A DNA stretch of 64,000 bases from an uncultured Bacilli bacterium (GTDB taxonomy: Bacteria > Bacillota_I > Bacilli_A > RF39 > UBA660): assembly GCA_947632395.1 (NCBI GenBank), contig CANRPA010000001.1, positions 23,922 to 87,921 on the forward strand, read 5' to 3'. The notes under the pieces are model-generated. The model was given only the letters and a program-made list of their open reading frames with translations, was not told the origin of the DNA and did no database searches. The position numbers and the translations under genes were made by a program. Positions 4,769-63,900 of the stretch are shown piece after piece. Position 1 is the first letter of the stretch. Every line of letters begins with the position of its first letter.

Positions 4769-6193
4769 ATGAATTTACCAGATTTAAAAGAAGCAAAGAT
4801 AAGAACTAATAAAAAATCTAGAATAATAAAAGATGATTATAAAGTACCAAATGAAATGAAGAATATTGGTAAAAATAAAAAATATTATATAAAGACTTAT
4901 GGATGTCAAATGAATGTACACGATAGTGAAAATATAAGTGCTATATTAGAAGATATGGGTTATGTTAAAACGGAAGATTTGAAAGATGCAGACATAATAT
5001 TACTTAATACTTGTGCGATAAGAGAAAATGCTCATAATAAAATGTTTGGTTTTTTAGGGAGAGTAAAACATTTAAAAGAAACTAAAAAAGATATAATTTG
5101 TGGTATATGTGGATGTATGGCACAAGAAGAAAATGTAGTTGAGTCTATAAAAAATAAATACAAATGGGTAGATATAGTATTTGGAACACATAATTTACAC
5201 AAACTTCCTAATATATTAAAGGAATCTATTGATAAGCAAAAACAAGAGATAGATGTAGTTAGTATAGAAGGAGACATTTATGAAAATATACCTGTAAAAA
5301 GAGATTCAAAATATAAAGCCTGGGTTAATATAATGCTTGGATGTGATAAATTTTGTACATATTGTATAGTTCCATATACAAGAGGAAAACAAAGAAGTAG
5401 AATGCCTATTGATATAATAAATGAAGTTAAAGATTTAGTAAAAGATAATTATAAAGAAGTAACTCTTTTGGGTCAAAATGTAAATGCATATGGTAAAGAT
5501 TTAAATATTGATTATACTATGGGTGATTTACTAGAAGACGTTGCTAAAACAGGGATAGATAGAATTCGTTTTGTAACAAGTCATCCTTGGGATTTCGATG
5601 ACAAAATGATTGAAATAATTGCAAAATACGATAATATTATGCCATATATACATTTACCACTTCAATCAGGATCAGATAGAATTTTAAAATTAATGGGTAG
5701 AAGATATACAAAAGAAAAATATATAAATTTATTTAATAAAATAAAAGAATATATACCTAATGCAGCAATTACTACAGATATAATAGTTGCCTTTCCAGGT
5801 GAGACAGAAGATGATTTTAAAGATACATTAGATGTCGTTAAAACTTGTAAATTTGATTCAGCATTTACATTTATTTATTCACCACGTGAAGGAACTCCTG
5901 CTGCTCGTATGGAAAATACTTTAACAGAAGAAGAAAAAAATAATAGATTATATGAATTAAATGAACTTGTAAACAAATATGCTAATGAAGCAAATCAAAA
6001 ATATTTGAACAAAATTGTACCAGTATTACTCGAAGACATAAGTGAAAAAGAAGGTAATCTTATGGGATATACAGATACTATGAAACTTGTCAATGTAGAG
6101 GCACCTAAATCATATTTAGGTAAAATAGTAAATGTAAAAATAACAGATATAAAAACTTGGAGTTTAGATGGTGAGTTAGTAGAAAAAAATTAA
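4769..6193 (+). CDS. miaB: tRNA-i6A37 methylthiotransferase MiaB (radical SAM MTTase)
   Basis: MTTase N-domain (YIKTYGCQMN), radical-SAM CxxxCxxC (CDKFCTYCIVPY) and a TRAM-like C-terminus. The start is probably internal, at MKNIGKNKKYY. Confidence 0.85.
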   Translation: MNLPDLKEAKIRTNKKSRIIKDDYKVPNEMKNIGKNKKYYIKTYGCQMNVHDSENISAILEDMGYVKTEDLKDADIILLNTCAIRENAHNKMFGFLGRVKHLKETKKDIICGICGCMAQEENVVESIKNKYKWVDIVFGTHNLHKLPNILKESIDKQKQEIDVVSIEGDIYENIPVKRDSKYKAWVNIMLGCDKFCTYCIVPYTRGKQRSRMPIDIINEVKDLVKDNYKEVTLLGQNVNAYGKDLNIDYTMGDLLEDVAKTGIDRIRFVTSHPWDFDDKMIEIIAKYDNIMPYIHLPLQSGSDRILKLMGRRYTKEKYINLFNKIKEYIPNAAITTDIIVAFPGETEDDFKDTLDVVKTCKFDSAFTFIYSPREGTPAARMENTLTEEEKNNRLYELNELVNKYANEANQKYLNKIVPVLLEDISEKEGNLMGYTDTMKLVNVEAPKSYLGKIVNVKITDIKTWSLDGELVEKN

Positions 6194-6298
6194 AAAATTT
6201 TACTTGTTACAATAAAAAAACTTTACAAAAAAATTATAAATTGATATACTTATAATGTATTCCGATTAAGGATAAAAAGGTTAGAAGGGAAGGTAAAT

Positions 6299-6838
6299 AT
6301 GGAACTTAAAGGAAGTAAAACAGAACAAAATTTAATGGCTGCATTTGCAGGAGAAAGTCAAGCTAGAAATAAGTATACTTATTTTGCTAGCAAAGCTAAA
6401 AAAGAGGGCTATGAACAAATTGCTGCTATATTTGAAGAAACAGCAAATAATGAAAAAGAACATGCTAAACTTTGGTTTAAACTACTTGAAGGTGGTGAAA
6501 TTAAAACAACTGCTGAAAATTTAAAAGCTGCTGCTGAAGGTGAAAACTATGAATGGACAGATATGTATGATGGATTTGCTAAAACAGCTAAACAAGAAGG
6601 TTTTGATCATATAGCATTCCTTTTTGAAGGTGTAGCTAAGATTGAAAAAGAACATGAAGAAAGATATAGAAAATTACTTAACAACATTGAGGATAAATTA
6701 GTATTTTCAAGTGAAGGAGACGCAATTTGGGTATGTCGCAACTGTGGACATATAGTAGTTGGTAAAGAAGCACCTCTTGTTTGCCCTATATGTTCTCATA
6801 AGCAAAGTTTCTTTGAAAGAAAAGCTGATAATTATTAA
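6299..6838 (+). CDS. rbr: rubrerythrin
   Basis: Ferritin-like di-iron ExxH motifs (EKEH appears twice) and a C-terminal rubredoxin-like CRNCG...CPIC domain. Confidence 0.85.
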
Positions 6839-7408: not shown

Positions 7409-10213
7409 ATGGATAAAATAATAATAAAAGGAGCAAGAGAAAATAATTTAAAAAATGTTAATTTAGAATTACCAAAAAACAAATTAATAGTAATGACAGG
7501 AGTAAGTGGAAGTGGTAAAAGTTCTTTAGCTTTTGATACTATTTATGCTGAAGGTCAAAGAAGATATGTTGAAAGTTTAAGTGCTTATGCAAGACAATTT
7601 TTAGGTGGTACAAATAAACCAGATGTTGATAGTATAGAAGGACTTTCACCAAGTATTAGTATAGATCAAAAAACAACAAATAATAATCCAAGAAGTACAG
7701 TAGGTACAGTAACAGAAATTTATGATTATTTAAGACTACTTTATGCAAGAATAGGTGTACCATATTGTCCAAATCATAATATACCAATATCAAGTCAAAG
7801 TATAGAAGAAATGACAAACCAAATATTAGGATTAAATGAATCAACTAAAATTAGGGTTTTAGCTCCTATAGTTCATGGTGAAAAAGGTACTCATAAAGAT
7901 TTAATAGAGGACTTAAAAAAAGATGGATATACTAGAGTGATAATAGATGATAATGAATATGAATTATCTGATGAAATAAGTCTTGAAAAAACAAAAAAAC
8001 ATAATATAGAAGTTGTAATAGACAGACTTATAATTAAAGAAGATATAAGGAGTAGGCTTAGTGAAGCAATTGAACTTTCATGTAAACTTGCAAATGGAAA
8101 ATGTGTCATAGATGTAGTTGGTGGAGAAAAAATAATTATGAGTGAGAAATATGCTTGTCCACAGTGTGATTTTTCTCTTCCAGAATTAGAACCTAGATTA
8201 TTTAGTTTTAATGCACCATATGGAGCATGTCCAGAGTGTAATGGCCTAGGATTTAAACAAAAAATAGATGAAGATTTAATAATGCCAGATAAAACCAAAA
8301 GTATATTAGATGGAGGTATAGTTGCACTTAATATGGATGCATCTATATCAAATACTCAGATAGTGACACTCGCTAAACATTATAATATTGATTTAAGTAA
8401 ACCTATAAAAGATTTAAAAAAGGATGAACTAAATTTAATATTATATGGATCAGATGAACCACTTGAATTTAATTATACATCAAATAATGGTAATACTAGA
8501 AAAACAACTGATTATTTTGAAGGAATAATAAACAATTTAGAAAGAAGATATATTGAGACCAAAAGTGGTTGGATTAGAGAATGGTTAGATAAGTTTATGA
8601 TGGAACTTCCTTGTACTACTTGTGGTGGTTCTAGATTAAATGAATCTGTATTGTCAGTTAAAATAAATAAAAAAAATATATATGAAATGACTTGTTTGTC
8701 AATAGAAGATTTATATGATTTTTTAAATAATTTAAAATTAAATAAAGAACAAGAAAAAATTTCTGAATTGATATTAAAAGAAATAAAAGATAGACTTAAG
8801 TTTTTAATAAATGTAGGACTTGGTTATTTAACTTTAAATAGAATGGCAGGAACATTATCAGGTGGTGAAGCTGGAAGAATACGTTTAGCAACACAAATAG
8901 GTTCAAGACTTACAGGAGTTTTGTATGTACTTGATGAACCAAGTATAGGACTACATCAAAGAGATAACACTCGTCTTATAAACTCACTTCTTGAAATGCG
9001 TGATTTAGGAAATACATTAGTTGTAGTAGAGCATGATACAGATACTATGCTTGCTTCAGATTATCTTGTTGACGTAGGACCCCTTGCAGGTATACATGGT
9101 GGTGAGATAGTCGCATCTGGAACACCTGAAGAAGTAATGAAAAATGAAAATAGCCTAACAGGAAAATATTTAAGTGGAAAACTTAAAATAGAAGTACCAA
9201 AAAAAAGACGTAAAGGTAATGGAAAATATATTGAAATAAAAGGCGCTTCAGAACATAATTTAAAAAATATAAATGTCAAAATACCACTTGGCAAATTTGT
9301 ATGTGTAACGGGAGTATCTGGAAGTGGTAAAAGTAGTTTAATAAATGAAATACTTTATAAAGTAGTAGCCGCAAATCTTTATAAAACGAAAGAAAAACCA
9401 GGTAAACATAAAAAGGTACTAGGACTTGAAAATGTCGATAAAGTAATAGATATATCGCAAGCACCTATTGGTAGAACTCCACGTTCTAATCCAGCAACAT
9501 ATGTAGGTGTATTTGATGATATTAGAGATGTTTTTGCGCAAACCAAAGAAGCAAAAATGAGAGGTTATGATAAAGGTAGATTTTCATTTAACATAAAAGG
9601 TGGTAGGTGTGAAGCTTGTTGGGGAGACGGTGTAAAAAAAATAGAAATGCACTTTTTACCAGATGTTTATGTGCCTTGTGAAGTATGTAATGGGACACGT
9701 TATAATAGAGAAACTTTACAAATAAAATATAAAGGTAAAAGTATCTACGATGTACTTGAAATGAATGTAGAAGAAGCATTAGAGTTCTTTAAAAATATCC
9801 CTAAAGTAAGAGATAAATTACAAGTACTTATGGATGTTGGTTTATCATATATGAAACTTGGACAAAGTGCACCAACTCTTTCAGGTGGAGAAGCAGGAAG
9901 AGTTAAACTTGCTAAAGAATTGCAAAAGAAACCTACAGGTAAAAGTTTATTTATATTAGATGAACCAACAACGGGGTTGCACACACATGATATTAAAAAA
10001 TTGCTTGATATATTAAATAGGATAGTTGATAATGGAGATACTGTACTTGTTATAGAACATAACCTTGATGTAATAAAGGTTGCTGATTATATAATAGATT
10101 TAGGCCCTGAAGGTGGTTCTGGTGGAGGAAATATAGTTGCCCTTGGAACTCCAGAGGAAGTATCTAAAGTAAAAAATAGTTATACAGGACAATTTTTGAA
10201 GGGAGTTTTATAA
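7409..10213 (+). CDS. uvrA: excinuclease ABC subunit A
   Basis: 934 aa with two ABC ATPase modules (GVSGSGKSSL appears twice, LSGGE signatures) and zinc-finger CxxC pairs. Confidence 0.95.
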   Translation: MDKIIIKGARENNLKNVNLELPKNKLIVMTGVSGSGKSSLAFDTIYAEGQRRYVESLSAYARQFLGGTNKPDVDSIEGLSPSISIDQKTTNNNPRSTVGTVTEIYDYLRLLYARIGVPYCPNHNIPISSQSIEEMTNQILGLNESTKIRVLAPIVHGEKGTHKDLIEDLKKDGYTRVIIDDNEYELSDEISLEKTKKHNIEVVIDRLIIKEDIRSRLSEAIELSCKLANGKCVIDVVGGEKIIMSEKYACPQCDFSLPELEPRLFSFNAPYGACPECNGLGFKQKIDEDLIMPDKTKSILDGGIVALNMDASISNTQIVTLAKHYNIDLSKPIKDLKKDELNLILYGSDEPLEFNYTSNNGNTRKTTDYFEGIINNLERRYIETKSGWIREWLDKFMMELPCTTCGGSRLNESVLSVKINKKNIYEMTCLSIEDLYDFLNNLKLNKEQEKISELILKEIKDRLKFLINVGLGYLTLNRMAGTLSGGEAGRIRLATQIGSRLTGVLYVLDEPSIGLHQRDNTRLINSLLEMRDLGNTLVVVEHDTDTMLASDYLVDVGPLAGIHGGEIVASGTPEEVMKNENSLTGKYLSGKLKIEVPKKRRKGNGKYIEIKGASEHNLKNINVKIPLGKFVCVTGVSGSGKSSLINEILYKVVAANLYKTKEKPGKHKKVLGLENVDKVIDISQAPIGRTPRSNPATYVGVFDDIRDVFAQTKEAKMRGYDKGRFSFNIKGGRCEACWGDGVKKIEMHFLPDVYVPCEVCNGTRYNRETLQIKYKGKSIYDVLEMNVEEALEFFKNIPKVRDKLQVLMDVGLSYMKLGQSAPTLSGGEAGRVKLAKELQKKPTGKSLFILDEPTTGLHTHDIKKLLDILNRIVDNGDTVLVIEHNLDVIKVADYIIDLGPEGGSGGGNIVALGTPEEVSKVKNSYTGQFLKGVL

Positions 10214-10681
10214 ATGAAAGTAAGTTTTGAATATACAAAAAAAGAATATGAAAAATATTTAATAAGATCAAGAAAAGTAAACAATATAGTGTTATTTATA
10301 ATTGGTATAGCAGTATATTTGTTGTTATCCTATAATAAAATATCTTTAATTTATTTACCTTTGTTTATTATAGTTTGTTTATTTATAATAATTTTAATAA
10401 ATAAATTATATTTAGTATGTTATTTTAAAGTTAATCAAATGTTAAATTATAATACATATGGCAAATATATTTTAGAACTTACACCTAATAAATTTTCACT
10501 TACAGTAAATAACTCAAAAACAGATTATAAATATAATAAAATAAAGAAGATAATAGAAAGAAAAAAATATTTTAAAGTCAAATTTGAGGGATTGAGAGAT
10601 TATTTAGTGTTTGAGAAAATAAAATTTAATGAAGATGATTATAATAAAATAATAAAAATGTTTAAAGAAAAAGTTTTATAG
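10214..10681 (+). CDS. small membrane protein, YcxB-like
   Basis: 155 aa with two TM helices and a lysine-rich C-terminus. The start codon abuts the uvrA stop. Confidence 0.35.
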   Translation: MKVSFEYTKKEYEKYLIRSRKVNNIVLFIIGIAVYLLLSYNKISLIYLPLFIIVCLFIIILINKLYLVCYFKVNQMLNYNTYGKYILELTPNKFSLTVNNSKTDYKYNKIKKIIERKKYFKVKFEGLRDYLVFEKIKFNEDDYNKIIKMFKEKVL

Positions 10682-10899
10682 TTTAACTATAATTCTTTTT
10701 ATTATACATAGTTTTTGTTGTGATAACTACTTATTAATTATAGTCTTTATTTACTAAAAGTCGGTAGTAGTCATCTAAATTTAAGTATGAACTTAAGAAT
10801 TTAAAACTTGTCTTGAATTTTGTTTGTATATACTTATAAAAAACTCTATCTTTTTTTTTATCATTTTGTTATAATTATTATAGTAGAGTGTGATGATAG

Positions 10900-11238
10900 A
10901 TGAATAAAAAAGGACAAGCTTTGGTGGAATTTATAATAGTTTTACCTATACTACTTTTAATACTTATATCTATTATAGATTTTGGTAATATAATACATAA
11001 AAAATATGTATTGGAAAATGACCTAGATACAATAGTTAATATGTATGATGCAAATGAATATGATGAAATAAATAATTATATATCTGATAAAGATTTAAAA
11101 ATAGATTATAAAACTGAAGATAAATTTATTACAATAAATGTAAGCAAAAATGTAAATATATTTTCACCTGTACTAATAGGTATGTGGGGAAGAAAATACG
11201 AAATAAAAACAAGTAGGAGTATATATATAAATGAATAA
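10900..11238 (+). CDS. TadE/Flp-type prepilin-like protein (class III signal peptide)
   Basis: MNKKGQALVEFIIVLPILLL fits the prepilin-peptidase site G/xxxxEF (E at +5) followed by a hydrophobic helix, a TadE-like N-terminus. Confidence 0.6.
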   Translation: MNKKGQALVEFIIVLPILLLILISIIDFGNIIHKKYVLENDLDTIVNMYDANEYDEINNYISDKDLKIDYKTEDKFITINVSKNVNIFSPVLIGMWGRKYEIKTSRSIYINE

Positions 11239-11524
11239 AAAAGGACAAGTACTTGTAATCTTCATAATATTCATACCAATAATAATACTTATCTTCACAC
11301 TTATAGTAGATATAGGAAATATGTATATACAAAAAAGAAATATCAGTAATAACTTAAAATACGCAGTAGAATATTCAAATAAAAATAACACAAATATAGA
11401 GGAAATATTAAATAAAAATTTAGATAAAATTAAGATAGAATATAATGATGAAGAAATACAAATAACAAAAAAATATAATGGAATATTTATAAAAAAAGAT
11501 ATAATTGTAAAGATAAAAGGGTGA
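11231..11524 (+). CDS. TadE/Flp-type prepilin-like protein, tandem paralogue
   Basis: MNKKGQVLVIFIIFIPIIIL has the same leader (K-K-G-Q). Its start overlaps the upstream stop codon. Confidence 0.55.
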   Translation: MNKKGQVLVIFIIFIPIIILIFTLIVDIGNMYIQKRNISNNLKYAVEYSNKNNTNIEEILNKNLDKIKIEYNDEEIQITKKYNGIFIKKDIIVKIKG

Positions 11525-11528
11525 TAGT

Positions 11529-12305
11529 ATGGCATTAAATAAGGCAAAAACAATTTTAGTAACATCAGTTAGTGGAGGAGTAGGAAAAACAACTACAGTA
11601 CTTAATTTAGCAGGTATCTTATCTAATTTAGGTAAAAAAACTTTAATATTAGATTTAGATTTTTCATCAGGTGATATTGCTGCTATGCTTAATATAAAAT
11701 ACGATAAAGATATATATAGTTTATATGAAGATTTAAATAATAAAAAATTTACCAATTTTGAAGATTATGTTGCTAAATATGATGAAAATATAAGTGTACT
11801 TCCATCATTAAAAGATCCTAGATTCGCACATAAAATAGGTGGTAAAATACTTGAGGTAATATTATATAAAGCAAGATTGAAATATGATGTTATACTTATG
11901 GATTCATCACATGTACTTACTAATGTAAATTTATTTGCTTTAGATTATAGTGATGAAATACTTTATATAATAAATAATTCTTCAATGAATTTAAAAAATA
12001 TGAAAACCTTTGTTTCAATATTAAATAATATGGAAAAAACAAATTATAAAATTATACTTAATAATTCTAACGATAGAAATAAAGATTACTATGATAAATT
12101 TGATATAAAAAATATAATAAACAAAAATATAAACTATGTAATACCTAGTAATTTTTATCAAAAAAATATAGATAAATATATAATAGAAGGTAAAATACTT
12201 ACATTAGATAAAAATATATTAAAAAAGCAAAAAAGAGCTATTAAAATATTTAATTTAATAGTAAGTGATATACTTGAAGAAAGTAAGGGAGATAAGAATG
12301 TCTAA
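11529..12305 (+). CDS. TadZ/CpaE-like pilus assembly ATPase (MinD/ParA family)
   Basis: Deviant Walker A SGGVGKTT near the N-terminus. 258 aa, with no receiver domain. Confidence 0.7.
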   Translation: MALNKAKTILVTSVSGGVGKTTTVLNLAGILSNLGKKTLILDLDFSSGDIAAMLNIKYDKDIYSLYEDLNNKKFTNFEDYVAKYDENISVLPSLKDPRFAHKIGGKILEVILYKARLKYDVILMDSSHVLTNVNLFALDYSDEILYIINNSSMNLKNMKTFVSILNNMEKTNYKIILNNSNDRNKDYYDKFDIKNIINKNINYVIPSNFYQKNIDKYIIEGKILTLDKNILKKQKRAIKIFNLIVSDILEESKGDKNV

Positions 12306-13611
12306 ATCTTTTGTACAAGAATTTGAAATAGAAGAAAAAAACAATAAATATACTGATATTCCTGATTATGATGTTTTTACTAATAAAAAATTATTAGATG
12401 AACTTAGGGTAAAAATAATTCAAAATATAATAGATAATAGTAAGGGTAAAATAAATTCAAAAGTAGTTAGAAAAGAAATAGATAAAACGTTAGAAGGATA
12501 TGATTTAAGTTTAGTAGAACGTAGTTATATAAATAACTTAATAGATAATGAAATAAATGGCTTTGGACCACTTACAGAATTAATTGAAGATCCAAGTATT
12601 ACAGAAATAATGGTTAATGGTACTAACGATATATATATAGAATTAGATGGAAAAATAATAAAAGATGATAGTATATCATTTATAAATGATGAACACATAA
12701 TAAGGACAACTCAAAGGCTTATTCAACCTATAGGAAAAACAATTGATATAAATAATCCTATGGTGGATGCTAGACTTTCAGATGGTTCTAGACTTAATGC
12801 TATAATAGAGCCATTAAGTTTAAAAGGTCCAGTACTTACTATCCGTAAATTTAGGAGTGAACTTGAAAGCATAGATGACTTTTTAAGAAACGGAACGCTT
12901 ACTCCAAATATGGCAAGATTCATAGATGCTTGTGTTAAAAGCAAAATGAATATAATAGTATGTGGTGGTACAGGTAGTGGTAAAACAACACTTTTAAATG
13001 TAATGTCATCATTTATTACAGATGATGAGAGAATAATAACAATAGAAGATGCGGCAGAATTAAAATTAGAACAACAACATGTAATTTCACTTGAAACTAG
13101 AGGATCAAATTATGAGGGAACTGGAGAAGTAACAATTAGAGATTTAGTTATTAATTCACTTCGTATGAGACCAGATAGAATAATAGTAGGTGAAGTTCGT
13201 GGTAAAGAAGCATTTGACATGCTTCAAGCAATGAATACAGGTCATGAAGGTAGTATGACAACACTTCATGCTAATAGTCCAAAGGATGCATTAAATAGAT
13301 TAGAGACAATGGTACTTATGGCAGTAGAAATACCAATTAGTGCTATAAGAGAATATATAGAAAATGCGATAGATATCGTAATAAATATTTCAAGACTTAC
13401 TGATGGTAAAAGAAAAATTACAAGTATTAGTGAAGTAGTAGGATTTGAAAATGATGAAATAAAGTTAAATGAAATATTTGCGTTTAATCAAACAGGAGTA
13501 AAGAAAGATGGAGAAGTTATAGGAGAATTTGTTAAAAATAATGTAACTCCAGAAATTTATAAAAGAATAAAATCGCGTGGAATAACTAATTTAGCTGATA
13601 TGTTTGAGTGA
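12265..13611 (+). CDS. TadA/CpaF-family secretion ATPase (VirB11-like)
   Basis: Walker A GGTGSGKTT, an Asp box, a His box and the characteristic CpaF N-terminal domain. Confidence 0.85.
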   Translation: MIYLKKVREIRMSKSFVQEFEIEEKNNKYTDIPDYDVFTNKKLLDELRVKIIQNIIDNSKGKINSKVVRKEIDKTLEGYDLSLVERSYINNLIDNEINGFGPLTELIEDPSITEIMVNGTNDIYIELDGKIIKDDSISFINDEHIIRTTQRLIQPIGKTIDINNPMVDARLSDGSRLNAIIEPLSLKGPVLTIRKFRSELESIDDFLRNGTLTPNMARFIDACVKSKMNIIVCGGTGSGKTTLLNVMSSFITDDERIITIEDAAELKLEQQHVISLETRGSNYEGTGEVTIRDLVINSLRMRPDRIIVGEVRGKEAFDMLQAMNTGHEGSMTTLHANSPKDALNRLETMVLMAVEIPISAIREYIENAIDIVINISRLTDGKRKITSISEVVGFENDEIKLNEIFAFNQTGVKKDGEVIGEFVKNNVTPEIYKRIKSRGITNLADMFE

Positions 13612-15109
13612 GGTGAAAAATATGAAGGAGTTAAGTATAGATTATATAGAAATTACAAATGAAGATGTATTAGTTACTTATACTCCTTCTTTAGATGTAA
13701 TTAACTATTCCTATACCATAGAAAAAAATGGAGTAAAAGAACCTCCAGTATTTGTAAATTTAAATAAACAATTAGACATTACTTTAAATGAAACAGGTAC
13801 ATATAAAATAGAAATAATTTCAATTAATAAATTAGGTGAACAAAAAGTTACTACTGGTAATTATAAAATCGATAAAGAGCCACCAGTAATAAATGTAAAA
13901 AACAAGACATTAAAAACGAAAGCAAAGAAATCTATAAATTTATTAGAAAATGTTACAGCAAGCGATAGTAATGATGGAGATTTAACTAATAGTATTAAAA
14001 CTAATATAGATGATCTTAATTTAAACACACCAGGTATAAAAACTATAGAGTATAGCGTAACAGATAAAGCAGGTAATACAACTACTAGTGTTGCTTATCT
14101 AACTGTTAAAGAAAATAATGAAAATTTAATATTATTTGGACAAATAGGAATAGTTATATTATTTTTAGGATTAGTATTATTTTTAATTAAATATATTAAG
14201 AGCATAAAACTAGAAAAAAGATTTTCTAAGTATACAATTAATTCATATAAAAATAAATCAATTTCACTTTTAGATAATATTCATACAGATTATTTAAAAT
14301 TTATAAATAAATTAAGCAAACTACTTAAAAGATCGCCTATTATGAATAATATGGCAAAAAAATATGAAAAATATGATTGTATGTTTGAAAAATATGATAG
14401 CATGGATTTTGTTTCAAGAAAAGTAGTATTTGGCTTAATTTATATAGCGATTGCAATTACAGTTAGTTTAATAGCATCAACAATACTTACATTTGTTGAA
14501 GTTTTAATATCATTTATATTGGGATTCTATATGTTAGATATAATATATATATTAAAGTATTCTAAATATAAAAAGAAAATAGAAAATGATATGCTAAGTG
14601 CAATAACACTTATGAATAATGCTTTTAAAGCAGGTAAAAGCATTATTCAAGCAGTAGAACTTGTTTCAAGAGAACTTAATGGACCTATATCAAAAGAATT
14701 TGAAAGAATAGGTAAAGAAATAATGTATGGCATAGATGTTGATATAGCATTTAAAAGATTTAAAGATAGGGTAAAAATTAAAGAAGCAGTATATTTATCA
14801 TCTAGTTTATCTATATTAAATAAAACAGGTGGTAATATAATTAAAGTATTCGATAAAATAGAAAAAAATGTATATAATCGAAAAAAATTGCAAAATGAAT
14901 TAAAATCACTAACTAGCAGTTCAAAATTAATTACATACGTGTTGATATTTGTACCAATAATATTTATAGTATTTATAGGAATAATAAATATAGGATACTT
15001 TGAACCATTATTTGAACATCCATTAGGTATATTTGTAATATTAATTAGTCTTATAATTTATATTGCATATATTATAATAGTAAAAAAGGCAATGAAAGTA
15101 AAGGTGTAA
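13604..15109 (+). CDS. TadB-like T2SS-F-family membrane protein fused to N-terminal Ig-like (DUF5011-like) domains
   Basis: The C-terminal ~300 aa have GspF/TadB topology (TM, cytoplasmic helical domain, two TMs). The N-terminal ~170 aa have no signal peptide and carry the motif DKEPPVI...ASDSNDGDLT...TPG...Y.VTDKAGNTTT, which is typical of DUF5011 Ig-like domains. Confidence 0.65.
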   Translation: MSEVKNMKELSIDYIEITNEDVLVTYTPSLDVINYSYTIEKNGVKEPPVFVNLNKQLDITLNETGTYKIEIISINKLGEQKVTTGNYKIDKEPPVINVKNKTLKTKAKKSINLLENVTASDSNDGDLTNSIKTNIDDLNLNTPGIKTIEYSVTDKAGNTTTSVAYLTVKENNENLILFGQIGIVILFLGLVLFLIKYIKSIKLEKRFSKYTINSYKNKSISLLDNIHTDYLKFINKLSKLLKRSPIMNNMAKKYEKYDCMFEKYDSMDFVSRKVVFGLIYIAIAITVSLIASTILTFVEVLISFILGFYMLDIIYILKYSKYKKKIENDMLSAITLMNNAFKAGKSIIQAVELVSRELNGPISKEFERIGKEIMYGIDVDIAFKRFKDRVKIKEAVYLSSSLSILNKTGGNIIKVFDKIEKNVYNRKKLQNELKSLTSSSKLITYVLIFVPIIFIVFIGIINIGYFEPLFEHPLGIFVILISLIIYIAYIIIVKKAMKVKV

Positions 15110-15113
15110 TTAT

Positions 15114-15806
15114 ATGCAAAGTATTATAAAAAAAATATTTAGACAAAAAGATTTAAAAAACATAGATAATAAGATAATTATGTTAGGTCAAAATAGAAAA
15201 ATAAAATTTAATACAGTAGAATTTGTGAGTGCTAGAATAATTACTACAGTAATACTCATTGTTCTTATGCTTATATTTAAGACAAAATATTATTTTATAC
15301 CTATTATAGTTATAATTTATTATAATTTATTTTACTACATATTTATTACAAATGAATTAAATAAAAGAGTGAGAAAATTAGAAAGAGAAGCACTTACATT
15401 TTTTGAAATTTTGACTCTTACCTTAGAATCTGGAAGAAATTTAGAAAATTCAATAGAAATAACAGTAAAAAATGTAGATGGTGAATTATCAGATGAATTT
15501 AAAAGAGTCTTAAAAGAAATACAGTATGGAAAATCACTTATGGAATCACTAGAACATTTAAAATTAAGAATTCCATCAGAGACTATAAATAATATTATAT
15601 TAAATATTACTGAAACAAGTATATTTGGTAATAATATTGTAGATTCAATGAATACACAAGTTGATTATTTAAGAGAAAAAGAAATTATGGAAATAAAAGC
15701 ACAAATAAATAAGATACCAAATAAAGTAAGTATTATATCTGTTTTGTTTGTAGTACCACTTATTTTACTTATAATACTTGGTCCATTTATTGTAAATTTT
15801 TTATAG
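15114..15806 (+). CDS. TadC-like T2SS-F-family membrane protein
   Basis: 230 aa with an N-terminal TM, a helical cytoplasmic domain and C-terminal TMs. It directly follows the TadB-like gene. Confidence 0.6.
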   Translation: MQSIIKKIFRQKDLKNIDNKIIMLGQNRKIKFNTVEFVSARIITTVILIVLMLIFKTKYYFIPIIVIIYYNLFYYIFITNELNKRVRKLEREALTFFEILTLTLESGRNLENSIEITVKNVDGELSDEFKRVLKEIQYGKSLMESLEHLKLRIPSETINNIILNITETSIFGNNIVDSMNTQVDYLREKEIMEIKAQINKIPNKVSIISVLFVVPLILLIILGPFIVNFL

Positions 15807-15819
15807 GAGGATTTAATTT

Positions 15820-17127
15820 ATGAAATATTACATGGTTGGAATAAAAGGGGTTGGTATGAGTGCACTCGCACTTCTATTATCAGATTTAGGCTATGAAATA
15901 GTTGGGTATGATGATGATAAAACTCATAAATATACAGAAGATAAATTAATTAGTAGAGGTATTAAAATATTAAATGGACCTAATAATGAATTAGATAGTG
16001 ATACTATAGTTATACATTCTATTGCTTTAGGTGAGGAACATCCAGAAATAGTAAAGGCAAGAGAAATGGGCTTAAAAATCTATGAATATAAAGATATGTT
16101 AGGTAAACTTAGTAAAAAATATAAGACAATATGCATATCAGGTTGTCATGGTAAAACATCTACAGCATCTATTTTAACTCACATAATGAATGATGTATGT
16201 GATTCAAATTATATAGTTGGTAATGGTGTGGGACATGGAAATGCTGATTCCGATAAATTAATACTTGAAGCAAGTGAATATAAAAGACAATTTTTAACGC
16301 TTAGTCCAGAATATGTAATAATAACTAATATAGAAATGGATCATGCAGATTATTATAAAAATTTAGATGATATGATTTCTGCTTACCAAGAGTTTGCTAA
16401 TAACGCCATTAAAATGGTTTTAGCATGTGGAGATGATTCATATACACATATGCTTAACGTAAATGCTGGTATATTTTTCTATGGATTAAATGAAGACAAT
16501 GATATACAAGCAAGAAATGTAGAATATACAAGTGATGGTACAAATTTTGATGTATTTGTAGAAGATGAATATTTTGGACATTTTGAATTACCTATATATG
16601 GTAAACATATGTTACTTAATATGTTATCAGTAATCGCACTTTGTTTTTACGAAAGAATAGATTTAAAAGAATTATCTAAATCATTAAAAAAATTTGAAGG
16701 CATAACGGGCATATTTAAGGAAGAAACTTTAAATAGTAATATAATAATAAGTGACTATGCTAATCATCCAACAGAAATAAAATATACAATAAAGGCAGCA
16801 AAGCAAAAATATCCAGATAAAAAAATTATTACTATTTTTGAGCCTTATACATTTTCTAAGGTAGAAAAATTTAAAAATGATTTTATAAATGTATTATCAC
16901 TTTCAGATAGGGTATATGTTATGGATATAAATTATGATAATGAAAATCCTATAGACTATCCAAATTTAAATTCAGACGTTATTATAAATGGACTTAAAAA
17001 AGGCGAATATATTAAGTGTGGCATGAGTGATAAATTAATAAAATATAAAGATGTAGTAATGTTATTTATAGGAAGTAAAAATATAAATAATCTTTTAGAT
17101 GAATATAAAAAATTGCTAATAAAATAA
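15820..17127 (+). CDS. murC: Mur ligase family protein, MurC-like (UDP-N-acetylmuramate--L-alanine ligase)
   Basis: N-terminal Rossmann region GIKGVGMSALA, Mur ligase P-loop GCHGKTSTAS and C-terminal DYANHPTEI...FEPYTFSK. Confidence 0.6.
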   Translation: MKYYMVGIKGVGMSALALLLSDLGYEIVGYDDDKTHKYTEDKLISRGIKILNGPNNELDSDTIVIHSIALGEEHPEIVKAREMGLKIYEYKDMLGKLSKKYKTICISGCHGKTSTASILTHIMNDVCDSNYIVGNGVGHGNADSDKLILEASEYKRQFLTLSPEYVIITNIEMDHADYYKNLDDMISAYQEFANNAIKMVLACGDDSYTHMLNVNAGIFFYGLNEDNDIQARNVEYTSDGTNFDVFVEDEYFGHFELPIYGKHMLLNMLSVIALCFYERIDLKELSKSLKKFEGITGIFKEETLNSNIIISDYANHPTEIKYTIKAAKQKYPDKKIITIFEPYTFSKVEKFKNDFINVLSLSDRVYVMDINYDNENPIDYPNLNSDVIINGLKKGEYIKCGMSDKLIKYKDVVMLFIGSKNINNLLDEYKKLLIK

Positions 17128-17132: not shown

Positions 17133-17160
17133 TTGACATTTTAATTAATTATGGTATAAT
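17133..17160 (+). promoter_or_regulatory. sigma-A-type promoter (TTGACA-N16-TGgTATAAT)
   Basis: Consensus -35 TTGACA at 17133-38 and an extended -10 TGGTATAAT ending at 17160, about 25 nt upstream of the 17185 ORF. Confidence 0.5.
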
Positions 17161-17184: not shown

Positions 17185-17847
17185 ATGGAAAAAAGTATTG
17201 ATAATTATCCAATATTTGTAACAAAGATATCGAAACAAATGAGCAATATTGAATTAAAAGATGCACTATTAAATAGAAGAAACGAGATTACGAGAAAAAA
17301 ACTGATAAACGAAAATTTATGGATTGTTGAAAAAATTATTTTAACTAATTTTGCAGATAGAAACGATAAAGATGAATTAATGAGCGTTGGTGCTAGCGCA
17401 TTAATCGATTATATAGATAAATATGATGAAAAAAATAACAATGATTTTTACGAATCAATTAAAGAATATATAAAAAATGTACTAAACCAATATATAGAAT
17501 ATGGTAAAAATATTGCATCATTAGATGAATTAATTGAAGAAGAAAACAACGAATATATTGGTTTTAATCCAGATTTTGAAGTAGATATCGAAAAAATATT
17601 TTTAGATAAAATATCTGATAATATATTATTTAAAAAATTATCTTTAATGTTAACTGAAAGAGAAAAAGACATTTTAATTAAATATTGCTATGAAAATCAA
17701 ACATTTTATCAAATAGCAAAAAAATATAATTTATCAGTAGCTAAGGTTAGTCAAATGATGCACGTAATAGGTCGTAAAGTTCATGCATGTATACGTTGTA
17801 AAAATATTCAACTTGATGGAAAGAAAAAAAAGATAACAAGAATTTAA
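17185..17847 (+). CDS. sigma-70-family RNA polymerase sigma factor (regions 2 and 4 only)
   Basis: Region-2-like ENLWIVEKII...DELMSVGASALIDYIDKYD...F..Y....I. Region-4 helix-turn-helix LTEREKDILIKYCYENQTFYQIAKKYNLSVAKVSQMM. Confidence 0.55.
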   Translation: MEKSIDNYPIFVTKISKQMSNIELKDALLNRRNEITRKKLINENLWIVEKIILTNFADRNDKDELMSVGASALIDYIDKYDEKNNNDFYESIKEYIKNVLNQYIEYGKNIASLDELIEEENNEYIGFNPDFEVDIEKIFLDKISDNILFKKLSLMLTEREKDILIKYCYENQTFYQIAKKYNLSVAKVSQMMHVIGRKVHACIRCKNIQLDGKKKKITRI

Positions 17848-43061: not shown

Positions 43062-44891
43062 ATGAATTTATTTAAAAAAACATGGAATTTCATAGTTAAA
43101 CATAAAAGTATTTTTGTGATATTATTGTTGCTTTTGAGTATAATCATTTTTATTATATTTTTAACGAATAATAAAAATAATAATAAAAATAATAACGAAA
43201 ATAGCAATTTATGTTTATTAAATTTTAATACTAATGGTGGTACAGCAATCAATAGTCTAAAAGTTGAATGTGGTAGTAAAGCAATTAAACCAGCCACTCC
43301 TATTAAAGAAGGATTTGAATTTATTGGCTGGTATATAGATGGGGAATTAGTAAATTTTGATAATTTAATTATAGATAAAAATATTATTTTAGAAGCACAA
43401 TGGAAAGTTAAAGAAAACGTAGAAACAATTATTGTTCATTTTGACTCAGATGGTGGTACTACTATTAATGATATAGAAATTACTAAAGGAACTAAAATAA
43501 ATCCACCATTAAATCCTACAAAAAACGGATATAAATTTAAGTATTGGATATTTAATAATCATGAATATAATTTTGAAAATATAGTTGAAGAGGATATTAC
43601 TTTAAAAGCGGTTTGGGAACAATCTAAAACACAAGATTCTAATAATACATCAAATAATGAAGAAGAAAATAATCAAAATTTAAATAATGTTGATTCAAAA
43701 CCTAATGATTCTAATAGTACTAATAATAGTACATCAAAAAAATCTTGTACATATTCATTAATAAAAAATTATCCAACAAGTATTTCAATTATGAAAGATA
43801 CTACATATCAATTTGATAATTCTTTTAGCAAGTGGGATAATTTTAGTTCAAGTTTGTGTAATATAACTTATAAAACCAATAATTCCAAAATATTAACTAT
43901 AGATTCTTCTGGTTTAGCATTTGGTAAAAAAGTTGGTAAAACAAAAATAACTATATGTATAGTAGATGTCCATAACAATAAAGAATTGGATTGTTTTGAT
44001 ATAGATGTTGAAATAACTAATAATTTTGATAAGGAAGCAGAAAAGTTATATAATGAAATGGTAGGGTATTATTGGTATTTAGAAGGAAGTAATAATTCTT
44101 TTTTGAAAGTTTCTGCAGGTGATTATGGTGAATACTCTTTAAAGTGGGAAGGGGAATTCTTGACAATAGAAGATAATAAATTTCTTACATCAGAGCAAAC
44201 AGGCGTCTTTTATCGTTTCCCTTGGCCACTTTATCAATTAGAAACTAGTTCATATTTATTAATTAAAAATAATCTTGTACATGTTTCTAATGATAAACTT
44301 TATATAACTTTAGGTTCTAAAACTTATACTTTTGTTAAATCTAGAGAAAAAAGAACAATTAAAGGTACAATAAGTTTTGAAGAAAAGAATAAAAAGGTCC
44401 CTCAAAATTCAATGGTTTATGTTAATATAATAAAAAGTAATCCTTATGCATCGTATGACTTTCATTTAATTCAATCAAACGATGGTTTAAAACAGTGTGA
44501 AGTCATTAAAACTTCAGTATCAAGTGATGGAGATACCTATGGATTTAGGTGTTATGCTAATGTTGAAGGTACAACTGATATTACTATTAAAGATAGTATT
44601 GGTGGTTCTGAAGCTAAGATTACCATCGAAACATATTATCAACCAGTTCTTGGTATAAAATTTGAAAAGAATGAAATTACTATGAAAGTTGGAGAAACTA
44701 TACAATTAAATACATTTATATCGCCACATTATGCATCAATACCATATGTAACGTGGAGAAGTAATAATTATAATGTTGAAGTTGATACGTTTGGAAACAT
44801 TACAGCACATTCTCCAGGTGAATCAATAGTAACAGTTAGAACTAATGACGGTGGCTTTGAAGATACGTGTAAAATAATAATTATAGAATAA
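43062..44891 (+). CDS. cell-surface protein with two InlB-B-repeat (Listeria-Bacteroides repeat) domains and a C-terminal Big_2 domain
   Basis: N-terminal signal/TM, an Asn-rich linker, GFEFIGWYIDG...LEAQW and GYKFKYWIF...LKAVW repeats, and a C-terminal Ig-like Big_2 motif (ITMKVGETIQL...VTWRS...G.ITA.S.G...VTV). Confidence 0.6.
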   Translation: MNLFKKTWNFIVKHKSIFVILLLLLSIIIFIIFLTNNKNNNKNNNENSNLCLLNFNTNGGTAINSLKVECGSKAIKPATPIKEGFEFIGWYIDGELVNFDNLIIDKNIILEAQWKVKENVETIIVHFDSDGGTTINDIEITKGTKINPPLNPTKNGYKFKYWIFNNHEYNFENIVEEDITLKAVWEQSKTQDSNNTSNNEEENNQNLNNVDSKPNDSNSTNNSTSKKSCTYSLIKNYPTSISIMKDTTYQFDNSFSKWDNFSSSLCNITYKTNNSKILTIDSSGLAFGKKVGKTKITICIVDVHNNKELDCFDIDVEITNNFDKEAEKLYNEMVGYYWYLEGSNNSFLKVSAGDYGEYSLKWEGEFLTIEDNKFLTSEQTGVFYRFPWPLYQLETSSYLLIKNNLVHVSNDKLYITLGSKTYTFVKSREKRTIKGTISFEEKNKKVPQNSMVYVNIIKSNPYASYDFHLIQSNDGLKQCEVIKTSVSSDGDTYGFRCYANVEGTTDITIKDSIGGSEAKITIETYYQPVLGIKFEKNEITMKVGETIQLNTFISPHYASIPYVTWRSNNYNVEVDTFGNITAHSPGESIVTVRTNDGGFEDTCKIIIIE

Positions 44892-50186: not shown

Positions 50187-51119
50187 ATGAATAAACGTGG
50201 TTTTACACTTGTAGAACTTTTAGGGGTAATTGTTATTTTAATAATTGTAATCGCTTTAGCATACCCTAGCGTAATATTAGTAATAGATTCTGGTAAAGAG
50301 ACAAGTGAACAACAACAAATAAATGATATACTTATGAGTGCTTATGATTATTCAATAAAAAATACTGAATATTTACCTGATAAAGATGATACAACTTACA
50401 TAACTTTATCACAATTAAAAAATGATGGTTTACTAAAAATAAGTATAATTAATCCAATATCAGAAGAGGAATATTTTGATGATTTAGTTATAAGTATAAA
50501 AAATATTGGATCTGAATATGCTGAAAAAAGTAAATATTCAAAAAAAACAGGTGATTATTTATATACTTTAGAAATAGAAAAAACACAAGAGCAAGATTAC
50601 ATAATAAAAAAACCTACCATAGAACTTATAGGTCTTGATTCTAACTCAAATGATAATTATGTATCTACTATAGATGTAAATACAGATTATGAGGAAGCTA
50701 GATATAAAGCAACTGATAAAAATGGTAAAGATTTAACTGATAAAGTAATAATTAATATACTTTATGATGGTAAAGCAGTAAAAGATATTGATACTACGAA
50801 GGCAGGAATATATTATGTAAATTATACAGTAGTAGATGATGAAGGTTATGCTTCAATGGTCACAAGAAGTATTATCATAACAGATGATATGGAACCAGTT
50901 TTAACTGTTCCAACTTCAACAACAATAAGCATAAATGATAGCTCATTTAATTTACTAGATAAATCAGAAGTTAAATGTTCAGATAATAGTGGTAAATGTG
51001 ATATTACATATACAGGTGAAATAAAATTTGGAACTGCTGGCAAATATGTAATAGTATATACAGCAAAAGATCCAAGTGGTAATACTACCAAAGCAGAAAG
51101 AGTAATAACAGTTCAGTAA
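50187..51119 (+). CDS. type IV pilin-like protein (prepilin-type N-terminal cleavage/methylation domain) with two C-terminal DUF5011-like Ig domains
   Basis: MNKRGFTLVELLGVIVILIIVIALAYPS is a canonical class-III signal peptide (G|FTLVE). The tail contains two repeats of D..P.I......V..G..Y....A.D..G.DLT....G.Y...Y...D..GN. Confidence 0.7.
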   Translation: MNKRGFTLVELLGVIVILIIVIALAYPSVILVIDSGKETSEQQQINDILMSAYDYSIKNTEYLPDKDDTTYITLSQLKNDGLLKISIINPISEEEYFDDLVISIKNIGSEYAEKSKYSKKTGDYLYTLEIEKTQEQDYIIKKPTIELIGLDSNSNDNYVSTIDVNTDYEEARYKATDKNGKDLTDKVIINILYDGKAVKDIDTTKAGIYYVNYTVVDDEGYASMVTRSIIITDDMEPVLTVPTSTTISINDSSFNLLDKSEVKCSDNSGKCDITYTGEIKFGTAGKYVIVYTAKDPSGNTTKAERVITVQ

Positions 51120-59216: not shown

Positions 59217-60288
59217 GATAAAAACTTTTGAAGAAAGGAAAAATGAATTAGTAAAAAAAGGAAAAGAAAAAGGATTTATTACATATGAAGAACTTGCTAA
59301 TTCATTAAAAGGATTAGATTTAGATGCAGATAGTCTAGATGAATTATATAATGCATTTAATGAAAATAATATAGCTGTTATATCAGAAAATGACGATGAT
59401 AGTGATTCATCACCAGAAAAGATTTTACTTGATGATAACACACTTACTAAAGATTTAACAATTAATGATCCAGTTAGAATGTATTTAAAGGAAATAGGAC
59501 AAATAAAACTTTTAACTCTTGAAGAAGAAGGTGAACTTGCTGATAGAATAATGGAAGGGGATGAATCTGCAAAAAATACTTTAGCAGAGGCTAACCTCCG
59601 TTTAGTAGTAAGTATAGCAAAAAGATATGTTGGACGTGGTATGCTATTTCTTGATTTAATACAAGAGGGTAATATAGGTCTTATGAAGGCAGTAGATAAA
59701 TTTGATGTAAGTAAAGGATATAAATTTTCAACATATGCAACTTGGTGGATTAGACAAGCTATAACTCGTGCAATAGCTGACCAAGCTCGTACAATCCGTG
59801 TTCCAGTACATATGGTAGAAACAATAAATAAACTAGCCCGTGTTCAAAGACAACTTACTCTAGAACTTAATCGTGAACCAAGTGAAGAGGAACTTGCTAA
59901 AAAAATGGGTACAACTGTTGAAAAAGTTCGTGAAATATATAAAATAAGTCAAGATCCTGTAAGTTTAGAAACTCCAATAGGTGAAGAAGATGATTCACAT
60001 TTAGGCGATTTTATTAAAGATGAAAATAATTTAAGTCCAGAAGAGTATGCTACTAATGAAATGTTAAAGGATGAAATAAGTCAAGTACTTGAAACTTTAA
60101 CAGAAAGAGAAGAAAATGTAATAAGACTTAGATTTGGCCTTGAAGATGGTAAACCAAGAACACTTGAAGAGGTAGGTCAAATGTTTGGAGTAACAAGAGA
60201 AAGAATTAGACAAATAGAAGCAAAAGCACTTCGTAAATTAAGACATCCTTCTCGTTCTCGTAAACTCCGCGATTATATGGGTAATTAA
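59206..60288 (+). CDS. sigA: primary sigma factor SigA/RpoD
   Basis: Regions 1.2, 2, 3 and 4 ([62 protein letters not shown]). Confidence 0.95.
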
Positions 60289-63124: not shown

Positions 63125-63129
63125 TGTAG

Positions 63130-63900
63130 ATGCCTTTTAGCATATTATTATCGTTCTTTATATTAGGAACAATATTTGGATCATTTTATAATGTTGTTGG
63201 ATATAGATTACCAAAGGGGGAGTCTATTCTATATCCAGCATCACATTGTCCTAAGTGTAATCACAAATTAACACCTTTAGAATTGATACCAATTTTATCT
63301 TTTTTATTTCAAGGTGGAAAATGCAAAAATTGTAAAGCTAAAATATCTTGGTTTTATCCAATATTTGAATTTAGTAGTGGAGTATTATTCGCATTATCAT
63401 ATCAAATATTTGGTTTTTCATTAGAGTGTTTGCTTTCAATAGTATTTATTTCCATGCTGCTTATAGTAATTATAAGTGATTATCAAACTATGACTATACC
63501 AGATAGTGTATTAATAGTTTTTTCATTATTTATAATAATAATAAAGTTTTTTATTGTAGGATTTAAAGGTGTTGGAATATCACTATTGAATGGACTGGCA
63601 GCATTTATATTTATGTTTTTACTAAAGTTGTTTGGTGATTTTTTATTTAAGAAAGAATCAATGGGTGGTGGAGATATAAAATTAATGGCAGTTTTTGGTT
63701 TAACCTTAGGATTTCCAATGACGATAGTATCAATTTTTATGTCAGCATTTATAGGTCTACCAATATCACTTATAATATTACATAAGAATTCATCACATGA
63801 AATTCCATATGGACCATTTTTATCGATATCAGCAATTATCGTAATTTTATCTAAATTGGATATAAATACAATAATTAAATTTTTAACGTTTGGAAAATAG
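63130..63900 (+). CDS. pilD: prepilin peptidase (A24 family, PilD)
   Basis: N-terminal zinc-binding CPKC...CKNC tetracysteine domain and catalytic Asp-containing TM segments (ISDYQT..., GGGDIKL). Confidence 0.85.
   Translation: MPFSILLSFFILGTIFGSFYNVVGYRLPKGESILYPASHCPKCNHKLTPLELIPILSFLFQGGKCKNCKAKISWFYPIFEFSSGVLFALSYQIFGFSLECLLSIVFISMLLIVIISDYQTMTIPDSVLIVFSLFIIIIKFFIVGFKGVGISLLNGLAAFIFMFLLKLFGDFLFKKESMGGGDIKLMAVFGLTLGFPMTIVSIFMSAFIGLPISLIILHKNSSHEIPYGPFLSISAIIVILSKLDINTIIKFLTFGK

Follow-up and report, generated by a model that had tools for sequence, protein, structure and literature searches.

A compact, intact Tad-type pilus assembly operon of an uncultured RF39 bacterium without flp and prepilin peptidase genes in cis

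Introduction

Systems of the type IVc class, to which the Tad pili belong, carry one platform domain in each TadB/TadC-type protein, and this is regarded as a signature of the class (Pelicic review, PMC10191384). In the Gram-positive bacterium Micrococcus luteus the genes for such a pilus are distributed over the genome: the cluster tad-1 encodes TadE/F-like proteins as its only prepilins, flp resides in the cluster tad-2 and tadV is unlinked, and both tad clusters are needed to form Flp fibers (Angelov et al., 2015; PMC4322843). An unlinked tadV was described as typical of actinobacteria (PMC4322843). Attachment and DNA-uptake-type roles were reported for the Tad pili of M. luteus (PMC4322843) and of the genome-reduced Liberibacter (PMC8513845). 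RF39 is an uncultured bacterial clade with reduced genomes (PMC11680825), and a literature search on RF39 together with pili or Tad found no description of an RF39 locus. Here, we analyze a Tad locus of an uncultured Bacilli bacterium of this clade, which is located at positions 10900–15806 of a 64,000-nucleotide stretch of contig CANRPA010000001.1 (assembly GCA_947632395.1); this whole stretch is called the window in the following. A preliminary description, made from the sequence letters of the window, had read the locus as a compact Tad/Flp-like pilus assembly locus that lacks a recognizable Flp pilin and TadV. We find that this six-gene locus is a genuine and intact Tad (type IVc) pilus-assembly operon, which is core-chromosomal and under purifying selection, and that the lack of flp and peptidase genes in cis is ordinary for Gram-positive bacteria, since relatives carry flp elsewhere in the genome. 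As a whole, the findings are best explained by a functional, vertically inherited Tad operon to which the Flp pilin and the leader peptidase would be supplied in trans, a reading that we regard as fairly probable.

Results

A Six-Gene Operon With a TadA/CpaF-Type Motor

The locus consists of six tightly packed and co-oriented open reading frames (ORFs) on the forward strand, all of them intact, in the order tadE1-tadE2-tadZ-tadA-tadB-tadC followed by murC (Table 1). The pairs tadE1/tadE2 and tadZ/tadA overlap by 8 nt, the remaining junctions measure 4–13 nt, and the spacing between tadC and murC is 13 nt. The assignment to the Tad/Flp type is borne out, as two TadE-like prepilins, a TadZ-like ATPase, TadA, a TadB fused to immunoglobulin (Ig)-like sequence and TadC are all present.

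The motor protein TadA, a secretion ATPase of the TadA/CpaF family as found in type IVc systems, comprises 437 aa from the ATG at 12298, the start used by gene callers, or 448 aa from the GTG at 12265. It scores 321 bits against TIGR03819, its best PDB match is CpaF of Caulobacter crescentus (8rkd, E = 9e-104, 351 bits) with 8rjf and 9e24 also at E~1e-103, and its close homologues are labeled “CpaF family protein” by their sources. The match to TIGR03819 (“conjugal transfer-associated TadA”) and matches to the NCBIfam models of VirB11 (230 versus a cut-off of 250) and TrbB (222 versus 305), all below threshold, would also allow the protein to be read as a VirB11/TrbB-type conjugation ATPase on a mobile element, an identity with which the reading as a Tad locus would have fallen. 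We rejected this candidate, which retains next to no probability: PDB entries of VirB11 reach ~110 bits (E~1e-30) compared to 351 bits for CpaF, no relaxase, VirB4, VirD4 or other type IV secretion system genes were found in the neighborhood of the locus, and a mobile element is also ruled out by the position of the locus in uvrA-murC core-genome synteny and by its GC content of 21–25%, which is the same as that of the flanks.

The platform is split into separate TadB and TadC proteins with one T2SSF domain each, while the PilC-like protein encoded from 61418 has two. TadB comprises 495 aa from 13622, or 501 aa from the TTG at 13604, and contains a Bact_surface_Ig-like domain (PF16403, aa 116–162, E = 1.5e-7) and a T2SSF domain (PF00482, aa 334–458, E = 1.4e-14); TadC, with 230 aa and a single T2SSF domain, is a paralogue of the C-terminal half of TadB. 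The long, Ig-fused TadB (~500 aa) is confined to one clade and a short form (~335 aa) is found elsewhere. The positive-inside rule places the predicted Ig module outside of the membrane, and TadB does not have a signal peptide. Furthermore, this N-terminal module (13622–14150) and the Ig module at the C-terminus of the type IV pilin encoded at 50187–51119 are homologous (29% identity over 118 aa, E = 5e-5).

The product of the third gene is TadZ-like by position and superfamily only, and judged from its sequence it does not appear to be a member of the family. The 258-aa protein carries AAA_31/CbiA/ParA domains, has MinD as its best NCBIfam and PDB match and scores 18 bits against TIGR03815 (CpaE_hom_Actino), for which the cut-off is 154. 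Of the TadZ/CpaE architecture, composed of an N-terminal receiver-like domain and an atypical MinD/ParA ATPase domain, it has the ATPase domain only. Its length is 238–275 aa in all RF39 relatives compared to ~390–400 aa outside of RF39 (Chloroflexi, Bacillaceae). The usual deviant Walker A motif S-x-KGG[VT]GK[TS] is kept in 62 of 66 relatives; the window species and its nearest relative (L087/L088) have SVSGGVGKT, in which Ser replaces the signature Lys. The TadZ-like protein may be a non-catalytic scaffold.

The Operon Is Widespread in RF39 and Under Purifying Selection

Exact copies of TadE1 and the neighboring genes are found on metagenome contigs, and TadA has thousands of close homologues, of which the best 120 listed are 80–100% identical and come from metagenome-assembled genomes (MAGs) of Bacilli/Firmicutes. 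Relatives were scanned with one genome per species, giving 63 RF39-like loci whose titles include Bacilli, Mollicutes and Tenericutes MAGs, Ca. Coprosoma, CAG:822 and CAG:710, and the complete genomes among them have sizes of 1.20 and 1.34 Mb. TadA identity is 60–83% among these loci and up to 94% across RF39-like genomes overall. The gene order tadE1-tadE2-tadZ-tadA-tadB-tadC is observed in almost all of these loci, and the operon recurs in ~60 RF39-like genomes, often followed by murC, which is found 3′ of tadC in the long-TadB clade. In the closer relatives L087 and L089, the six genes are likewise present without flp, and the left flank differs.

Compared to the nearest species, L087 (GCA_947624135.1), with which the window shares 89% identity in TadA, the ratio of non-synonymous to synonymous substitution rates (dN/dS; dS 0.5–0.65) is 0.11 for TadA, 0.18 for TadC, 0.19 for TadZ, 0.22 for TadE1, 0.24 for TadE2 and 0.28 for TadB, and 0.15 for MurC. 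TadA is thus more constrained than MurC, and since all six genes of the operon have values of 0.11–0.28 we conclude that it is functional and not decaying. These ratios and the recurrence of the gene order also speak against a chance arrangement of ORFs. It might be argued that the locus is a decaying Tad remnant that became non-functional after pilin loss, given that flp is absent in cis and that the TadZ-like Walker A motif of the window lineage has Ser in place of the signature Lys. However, six intact ORFs, dN/dS values of 0.1–0.3 at this divergence, the conservation of TadA and the retention of the module in several species of the flp-less clade largely refute such a decay and leave it very improbable.

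The Flp Pilin Is Absent From the Locus and Is Adjacent or Orphan in Relatives

The major Flp pilin of type IVc systems (50–80 aa, G/XXXXEY site; here and below the slash marks the cleavage site) was found neither in the gap in front of tadE1, nor in the 64-kb window, nor in ~13 kb of extension. The 218-bp gap (10682–10899) contains no Flp-like ORF of at least 20 aa, and a hidden Markov model (HMM) built from the Flp proteins of 24 relatives gave no match at E<10 in any of its frames that would indicate a degraded relic of flp. Applied to the six frames of the window, the Flp HMM detected TadE1 and TadE2 only, and a search for the pattern G-x4-[EQ]-hydrophobic returned TadE1 and the type IV pilin at 50187 as the only pilin-like matches. 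A third match to the pattern, at 30957, was rejected, being internal to a long ORF and unlike a pilin. The extension carries housekeeping genes on the left (~5.7 kb) and pilB and pseudopilins on the right (~6.9 kb), with no flp, DUF192 or TadV gene on either side. The preliminary description was therefore right in reporting no Flp ORF in the upstream gap, and the canonical flp or tadV immediately outside of the window, with which it would have had to be abandoned, was not encountered in these extensions.

In 26 of the 63 relatives’ loci, a canonical Flp gene (G/QALVEY, 63–78 aa) is located directly 5′ of tadE1. The encoded proteins, for example MKLNNKG/QALVEYLLIIAVISVIAVSVVKLLGGYLQDSITKSSCNLVDKVYVEGNKPGEGTCQ, show the G/XXXXEY site, a hydrophobic helix, small size and a C-terminal Cys pair; for the family, 3,954 database matches were obtained, many of them already tagged PF04964. 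On the TadA tree, the flp-less state is distributed clade-wise: one clade consists of the window, L087, L089, L006 and L007, and a second one of 14 taxa including the complete chromosome L019 (OZ007025.1). This implies that flp has been separated from the operon or lost several times independently.

A Flp-seeded scan of metagenomes revealed where flp can reside otherwise. Among 80 loci, flp adjoins tadE1 in 52, nine are too short to tell and 19 were flagged as orphans, of which three turned out to be artefacts of overlapping ORF calls, which leaves ~16 true orphans that lack tad genes in the surrounding 6 kb. The orphan Flp P0167, for instance, comes from a very common species of the human gut and is indexed in 474 collection blocks; at all sites displayed, its gene is flanked by cysS/Zn-peptidase and hrcA-grpE-dnaK, and no tad gene is present within 10 kb. 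In the flp-adjacent loci L020 and L021, a left flank of the orphan type (cysS, Zn-peptidase, DUF192, flp) is followed by tadE1, and because orphan loci and these two loci share the flank, the break falls exactly between flp and tadE1. These loci give a direct view of how an orphan flp and a tad operon without flp can arise together.

In most RF39-like flp loci, a DUF192 gene (PF02643, E = 5e-10; ~95–120 aa) is divergently paired with flp, namely in 21 of the 26 genome loci and in 14 of the ~16 orphan loci, e.g., L008 5854–6246(-)/flp 6268–6459(+) and L165 5598–5951(-)/flp 6001–6198(+); the window lacks this pairing. DUF192 also occurs beside the tad loci of a Dehalococcoidia MAG (L070) and a Terriglobales MAG (L083), and a literature search found no link between DUF192 and Flp pili. 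In some relatives the orphan flp-DUF192 pair sits in the neighborhood of obg. In the window, two adjacent paralogous ORFs of 611 and 416 aa with no assigned function follow obg (Table 1), which have similar N-termini, …KYGENMMHLCRTLFPSIIETPGLL… and …KYGEEMMHFARKSFPVILETPGLL….

TadE1 and TadE2 Resemble a Conserved Pair of Minor Pilins

TadE1 is a precursor of 112 aa (107 aa mature) that starts with MNKKG/QALVEF and has Glu at position +5; TadE2 is a precursor of 97 aa (92 aa mature) that starts with MNKKG/QVLVIF, without Glu at this position. The two TadE-like prepilins and their cleavage sites had been recognized correctly in the preliminary description, and the size of 85–100 aa given there has to be corrected accordingly. 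All 220 homologues of TadE1 carry the PF07811 tag, and TadE1 has the G/XXXXE[FY] site of the TadE/TadF-type minor pilins of type IVc systems. TadE2, a paralogue of TadE1 (phmmer E = 1e-9), lacks Glu5 and matches PF13400 Tad (E = 1e-3) and PF07811 (E = 0.04) weakly, in both cases below the gathering score. Glu+5 is present in 99 of 100 TadE1 orthologues compared to none of 102 TadE2 orthologues, all of which have a hydrophobic residue there. The AlphaFold model of TadE1 (predicted local distance difference test score, 93.6) has a long N-terminal helix (residues 3–50) and a small β-sheet and thereby the lollipop shape of pilins, and a comparison with the PDB returned no significant structural neighbor. 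The Glu5 pattern fits a conserved pair of minor pilins, and TadE1 and TadE2 are most likely minor pilins. By analogy with the Glu5-less tip pseudopilins of other type IV filaments, TadE2 would be located at the tip, as a candidate tip or priming subunit.

The preliminary description had left two alternatives, that the TadE-like proteins themselves are the polymerized subunit or that the pilin lies elsewhere. In the former case, Flp would truly have been lost in the clade and the TadE-like proteins would build a fiber or a short pseudopilus, with TadE1 polymerizing and TadE2 as a cap. Such a loss is compatible with the confidently predicted pilin-like fold of TadE1 with its Glu5, with the absence of flp and DUF192 from 77 kb around the locus, and with the fact that the clade of the window (the window locus, L087, L089, L006, L007) and the 14-taxon clade are without adjacent flp and yet under purifying selection. 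However, the lengths and motifs of TadE1 and TadE2 are the same in flp-containing and flp-less loci, and since they are unchanged with or without adjacent flp nothing suggests that the two proteins took over the role of the major pilin. Moreover, orphan flp genes are a common occurrence in the group, and the TadE/F-like proteins of the flp-less M. luteus cluster were not detected in preparations of sheared fibers (PMC4322843). We therefore judge the loss of Flp to be unlikely; of the two alternatives, a pilin encoded elsewhere is the better supported one given the adjacent and orphan flp genes of relatives.

A PilD-Type Peptidase and a Second Type IV Filament System

A dedicated peptidase of the TadV/CpaA type, which lacks the N-terminal methylation domain, was found neither in the window nor in the extensions, and no A24 peptidase is encoded in any fetched RF39 tad or flp locus (~1.5 Mb in all). 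A TadV-type query (L076) matches nothing in the RF39 tad and flp loci, and in the window only a gene for a PilD-type prepilin peptidase directly 3′ of pilC, which is also the only A24 match in the window and extensions; in Bacillota outside of RF39 (Paludifilum, Salinithrix), a TadV-type gene is located beside tad. The motifs of the PilD-type enzyme are intact (CPKC...CKNC cysteines, ISDYQ aspartate, GGGD). The statement that no dedicated prepilin peptidase is present thus holds for the locus and fails for the window, in which this intact gene had been missed, and with it the preliminary description overlooked that the right end of the window harbors genes of a second type IV filament system (pilC, pilD). 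Contig L091, which is 100% identical to window positions 60001–64000, continues past the right edge, where its positions 13662–16494 encode a PilB-like T2SSE ATPase of 585 aa, in convergent orientation and with a long acidic repeat tail, and two G/F pseudopilins. The public gene call of L091 missed pilD and reported a spurious ORF on the reverse strand instead, although the DNA is identical to that of the window. A PilD/ComC-type peptidase, a two-domain platform protein, a PilB/ComGA-type ATPase and an N_methyl pilin with a G/F(T/S)LxE site are all present, and by these gene products the genome has a second, type IVa/Com-like filament system separate from the Tad operon. PilD is the most economical candidate for the cleavage of the MNKKG leaders of TadE1 and TadE2.

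The Ig-containing pilin at 50187–51119 is a possible substrate of either filament system. Another candidate adhesin of the window is a surface-protein-like ORF of 609 aa at 43062–44891 with Listeria-Bacteroides (Flg_new) repeats and Big_2. In 9 of 101 related loci, genes of G/FTLxE N_methyl prepilins, often with large C-terminal domains and up to 1,074 aa long, lie on the same strand within or abutting the tad operon (L006 5450–6454, L062 4679–6454, L053 6077–6532, L054 3209–6433, L013 2840–4095, L020 9321–9839 and L008 11525–12883 among them). In L006, a member of the window’s clade, the prepilin gene is located 72 bp 5′ of tadE1, where flp would be. This arrangement hints at a cross-talk of PilD-type substrates with the Tad machine.

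A hybrid system has therefore to be considered, in which the Tad motor and platform would assemble or display PilD-processed, Ig-headed G/FTLxE pilins such as the one at 50187–51119 instead of or besides Flp. The placement of these genes inside the tad operon or less than 100 bp away from it, the finding that the only peptidase detected is of the PilD type, and the homology between the Ig modules of TadB and of the pilin are in line with it. Against it stand the separate type IVa/Com-like set that exists for such pilins (pilC, pilD, pilB and two G/F pseudopilins), the restriction of the association to a minority of loci, and the distance of 35 kb between the window’s own pilin and the tad operon, and we regard the hybrid as quite unlikely.

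Setting of the Operon and Further Features of the Window

A small YcxB-like gene and uvrA flank the operon on the left, and murC flanks it on the right (Table 1). An Rfam scan of 10500–11100 revealed neither a riboswitch nor any further RNA element in the leader and returned noise only (SNORD27 and a MIR family, below threshold). A promoter and terminator scan of the region found fewer promoter-like sites than in shuffled sequences and no terminators, including between tadC and murC, and is uninformative in DNA of such low GC content. The only perfect sigma-70 promoter match in the region is located 3′ of murC, in front of a small sigma-factor-like gene. As the adjacency of tadC and murC is kept across the long-TadB clade, the essential cell-wall gene murC is probably co-transcribed with the pilus operon.

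Table 1. Positions of the operon genes and of further features in the window.
Feature	Position	Strand	Evidence or remark
uvrA	7409..10213		left flank
YcxB-like gene, small	10214..10681		left flank
Intergenic leader/promoter region	10682..10899	+	218 bp; without pilin coding potential
tadE1, TadE-family prepilin (most likely minor pilin)	10900..11238	+	PF07811 E=2.9e-10
tadE2, second TadE/TadG-like prepilin	11231..11524	+	sub-threshold PF13400, PF07811; tadE1 paralogue
tadZ-like, single-domain MinD/ParA-type P-loop protein	11529..12305	+	AAA_31 E=4e-17
tadA/cpaF, secretion ATPase motor	12298..13611	+	T2SSE E=1e-61
tadB, platform protein with one T2SSF and N-terminal Ig-like module	13622..15109	+	PF00482, PF16403
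tadC, second platform protein with one T2SSF	15114..15806	+	PF00482 E=6.3e-18
murC, not a pilus gene	15820..17127	+	Mur ligase domains
Sigma-70 promoter match	17133..17160		perfect match
Sigma-factor-like gene, small	17185..17847		
ORF after obg, 611 aa	33234..35069		
ORF after obg, 416 aa	35124..36374		
Type IV pilin (N_methyl, MNKRG/FTLVEL) with C-terminal Bact_surface_Ig-like domains	50187..51119	+	domain matches
pilC/comGB-like platform protein, two T2SSF domains, 568 aa	61418..63124	+	PF00482 E=1.3e-45 over two stretches
pilD-type prepilin peptidase, bifunctional class	63130..63900	+	A24_N_bact E=1.4e-33, Peptidase_A24 E=1.2e-16

Discussion

Supply of the Flp pilin in trans to a functional Tad operon would combine the findings as follows. 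TadA/CpaF would power the TadB-TadC platform in a single membrane, and the single-domain MinD-like TadZ would probably act as a scaffold or localizer. TadE1 with Glu5 and TadE2 without it would be minor pilins that prime or cap the fiber following removal of a 5-residue leader after Gly, and the fiber subunit would be a 63–78 aa Flp with the G/QALVEY site and the C-terminal Cys pair, provided in trans like the leader peptidase. The flp gene, usually paired with DUF192, would have been parted from tadE1 by a rearrangement and may now lie elsewhere in the genome, and the PilD-type peptidase would be the most likely processing enzyme.

Several points weigh against this explanation. Neither flp nor DUF192 is present in the 64-kb window and the ~13 kb of extension, and we infer the orphan flp of this organism; megablast and a comparison of shared flank proteins placed no orphan flp together with a flp-less tad operon in one genome, as there was no overlap. 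The cleavage of G/Q Tad prepilins by a PilD-type enzyme is presumed, while characterized Tad systems use a dedicated TadV (PMC10191384). The TadZ-like protein of the window lineage is without the signature Lys of the deviant Walker A motif, and in hmmscan the relatives’ Flp reaches 18.8 bits, which is below the Pfam gathering score of 32.2. Because the search covered 64 kb plus ~13 kb and the two genes were not placed in one genome, we consider a Flp supplied in trans to be probable rather than settled, and both the loss of Flp and the hybrid with Ig-headed pilins are kept as alternatives. These can also be combined: Flp would be permanently lost, one PilD-type peptidase would serve both filament systems, CpaF/TadBC would polymerize the TadE-like proteins or display Ig-headed G/FTLxE pilins, the Ig module of TadB would be part of this adaptation, and DUF192 would be an unrecognized accessory factor of Flp in monoderms. 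We regard this combination as unlikely.

For the annotation of genomes it follows that a Gram-positive tad operon without flp and tadV is not evidence of a new type of pilin, as the pilin gene can be located at a remote housekeeping site. Bacilli of the RF39 type are widespread in the gut and have genomes of ~1.2–1.3 Mb, and almost all of them keep the minimal six-gene Tad operon. This almost universal retention, together with a constraint on the motor above that on MurC, points to the operon as a core part of the RF39 lifestyle. By analogy with other Tad pili, the pilus may serve in DNA uptake or in adhesion to the host, to mucus or to other cells. Furthermore, the pairing of DUF192 and flp, the N_methyl pilins in tad operons and the Ig-fused TadB could add parts to the poorly known Tad machine of monoderms.

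Comparison With Known Systems

The preliminary description implied that a Tad locus without flp and tadV is unusual, which is not supported in view of the M. luteus precedent (PMC4322843) and of the flp genes that are adjacent or orphan in relatives. The tad-1 cluster of M. luteus, the closest among the characterized systems, resembles the window locus in its Gram-positive origin, in its TadA, TadB and TadC, in its TadE/F-like prepilins (G/XXXXE[FS]) and in having no flp or tadV in the cluster. However, it has no TadZ, its TadE/F proteins have ~150 aa and its peptidase is of the TadV type without methyltransferase domain, whereas the window has a TadZ-like gene, prepilins of 97–112 aa, an Ig-fused TadB and, as the only peptidase found, an enzyme of the PilD type. 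With the Tad/Cpa systems of Aggregatibacter actinomycetemcomitans and C. crescentus the locus shares the TadA/CpaF motor, the TadB/TadC platform split into one-domain proteins, TadE/TadF-type minor pilins with a G/XXXXEF site and a P-loop protein of the TadZ/CpaE class, which in the window is without the receiver-like domain. Compared to these systems, the locus is without flp, tadV, the secretin (RcpA/CpaC), RcpB/C, TadD and TadG, and the absence of secretin, RcpB/C and TadD fits what is expected of a monoderm. Further counterparts are sister RF39-like loci (L008, L014, L017, L020 among them), in which an orthologous operon has the same order, with or without murC following, and a TadA that is 64–83% identical (best tblastn segment); they differ from the clade of the window, which lacks both genes, by DUF192(-) and flp(+) directly 5′ of tadE1. 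Finally, a Tad-like cluster was described for TANB77 (PMC11680825), likewise an uncultured gut Firmicute with a reduced genome, and it also comprises a TadZ/CpaE-like protein, TadA, TadB/C-like proteins and poorly recognizable pilins. While the TANB77 cluster has CpaB, a fused TadC-TadB, a TadA of 640 aa and six pilin-like genes of 143–237 aa in cis, RF39 has a smaller locus with pilins of the recognizable TadE and Flp types.

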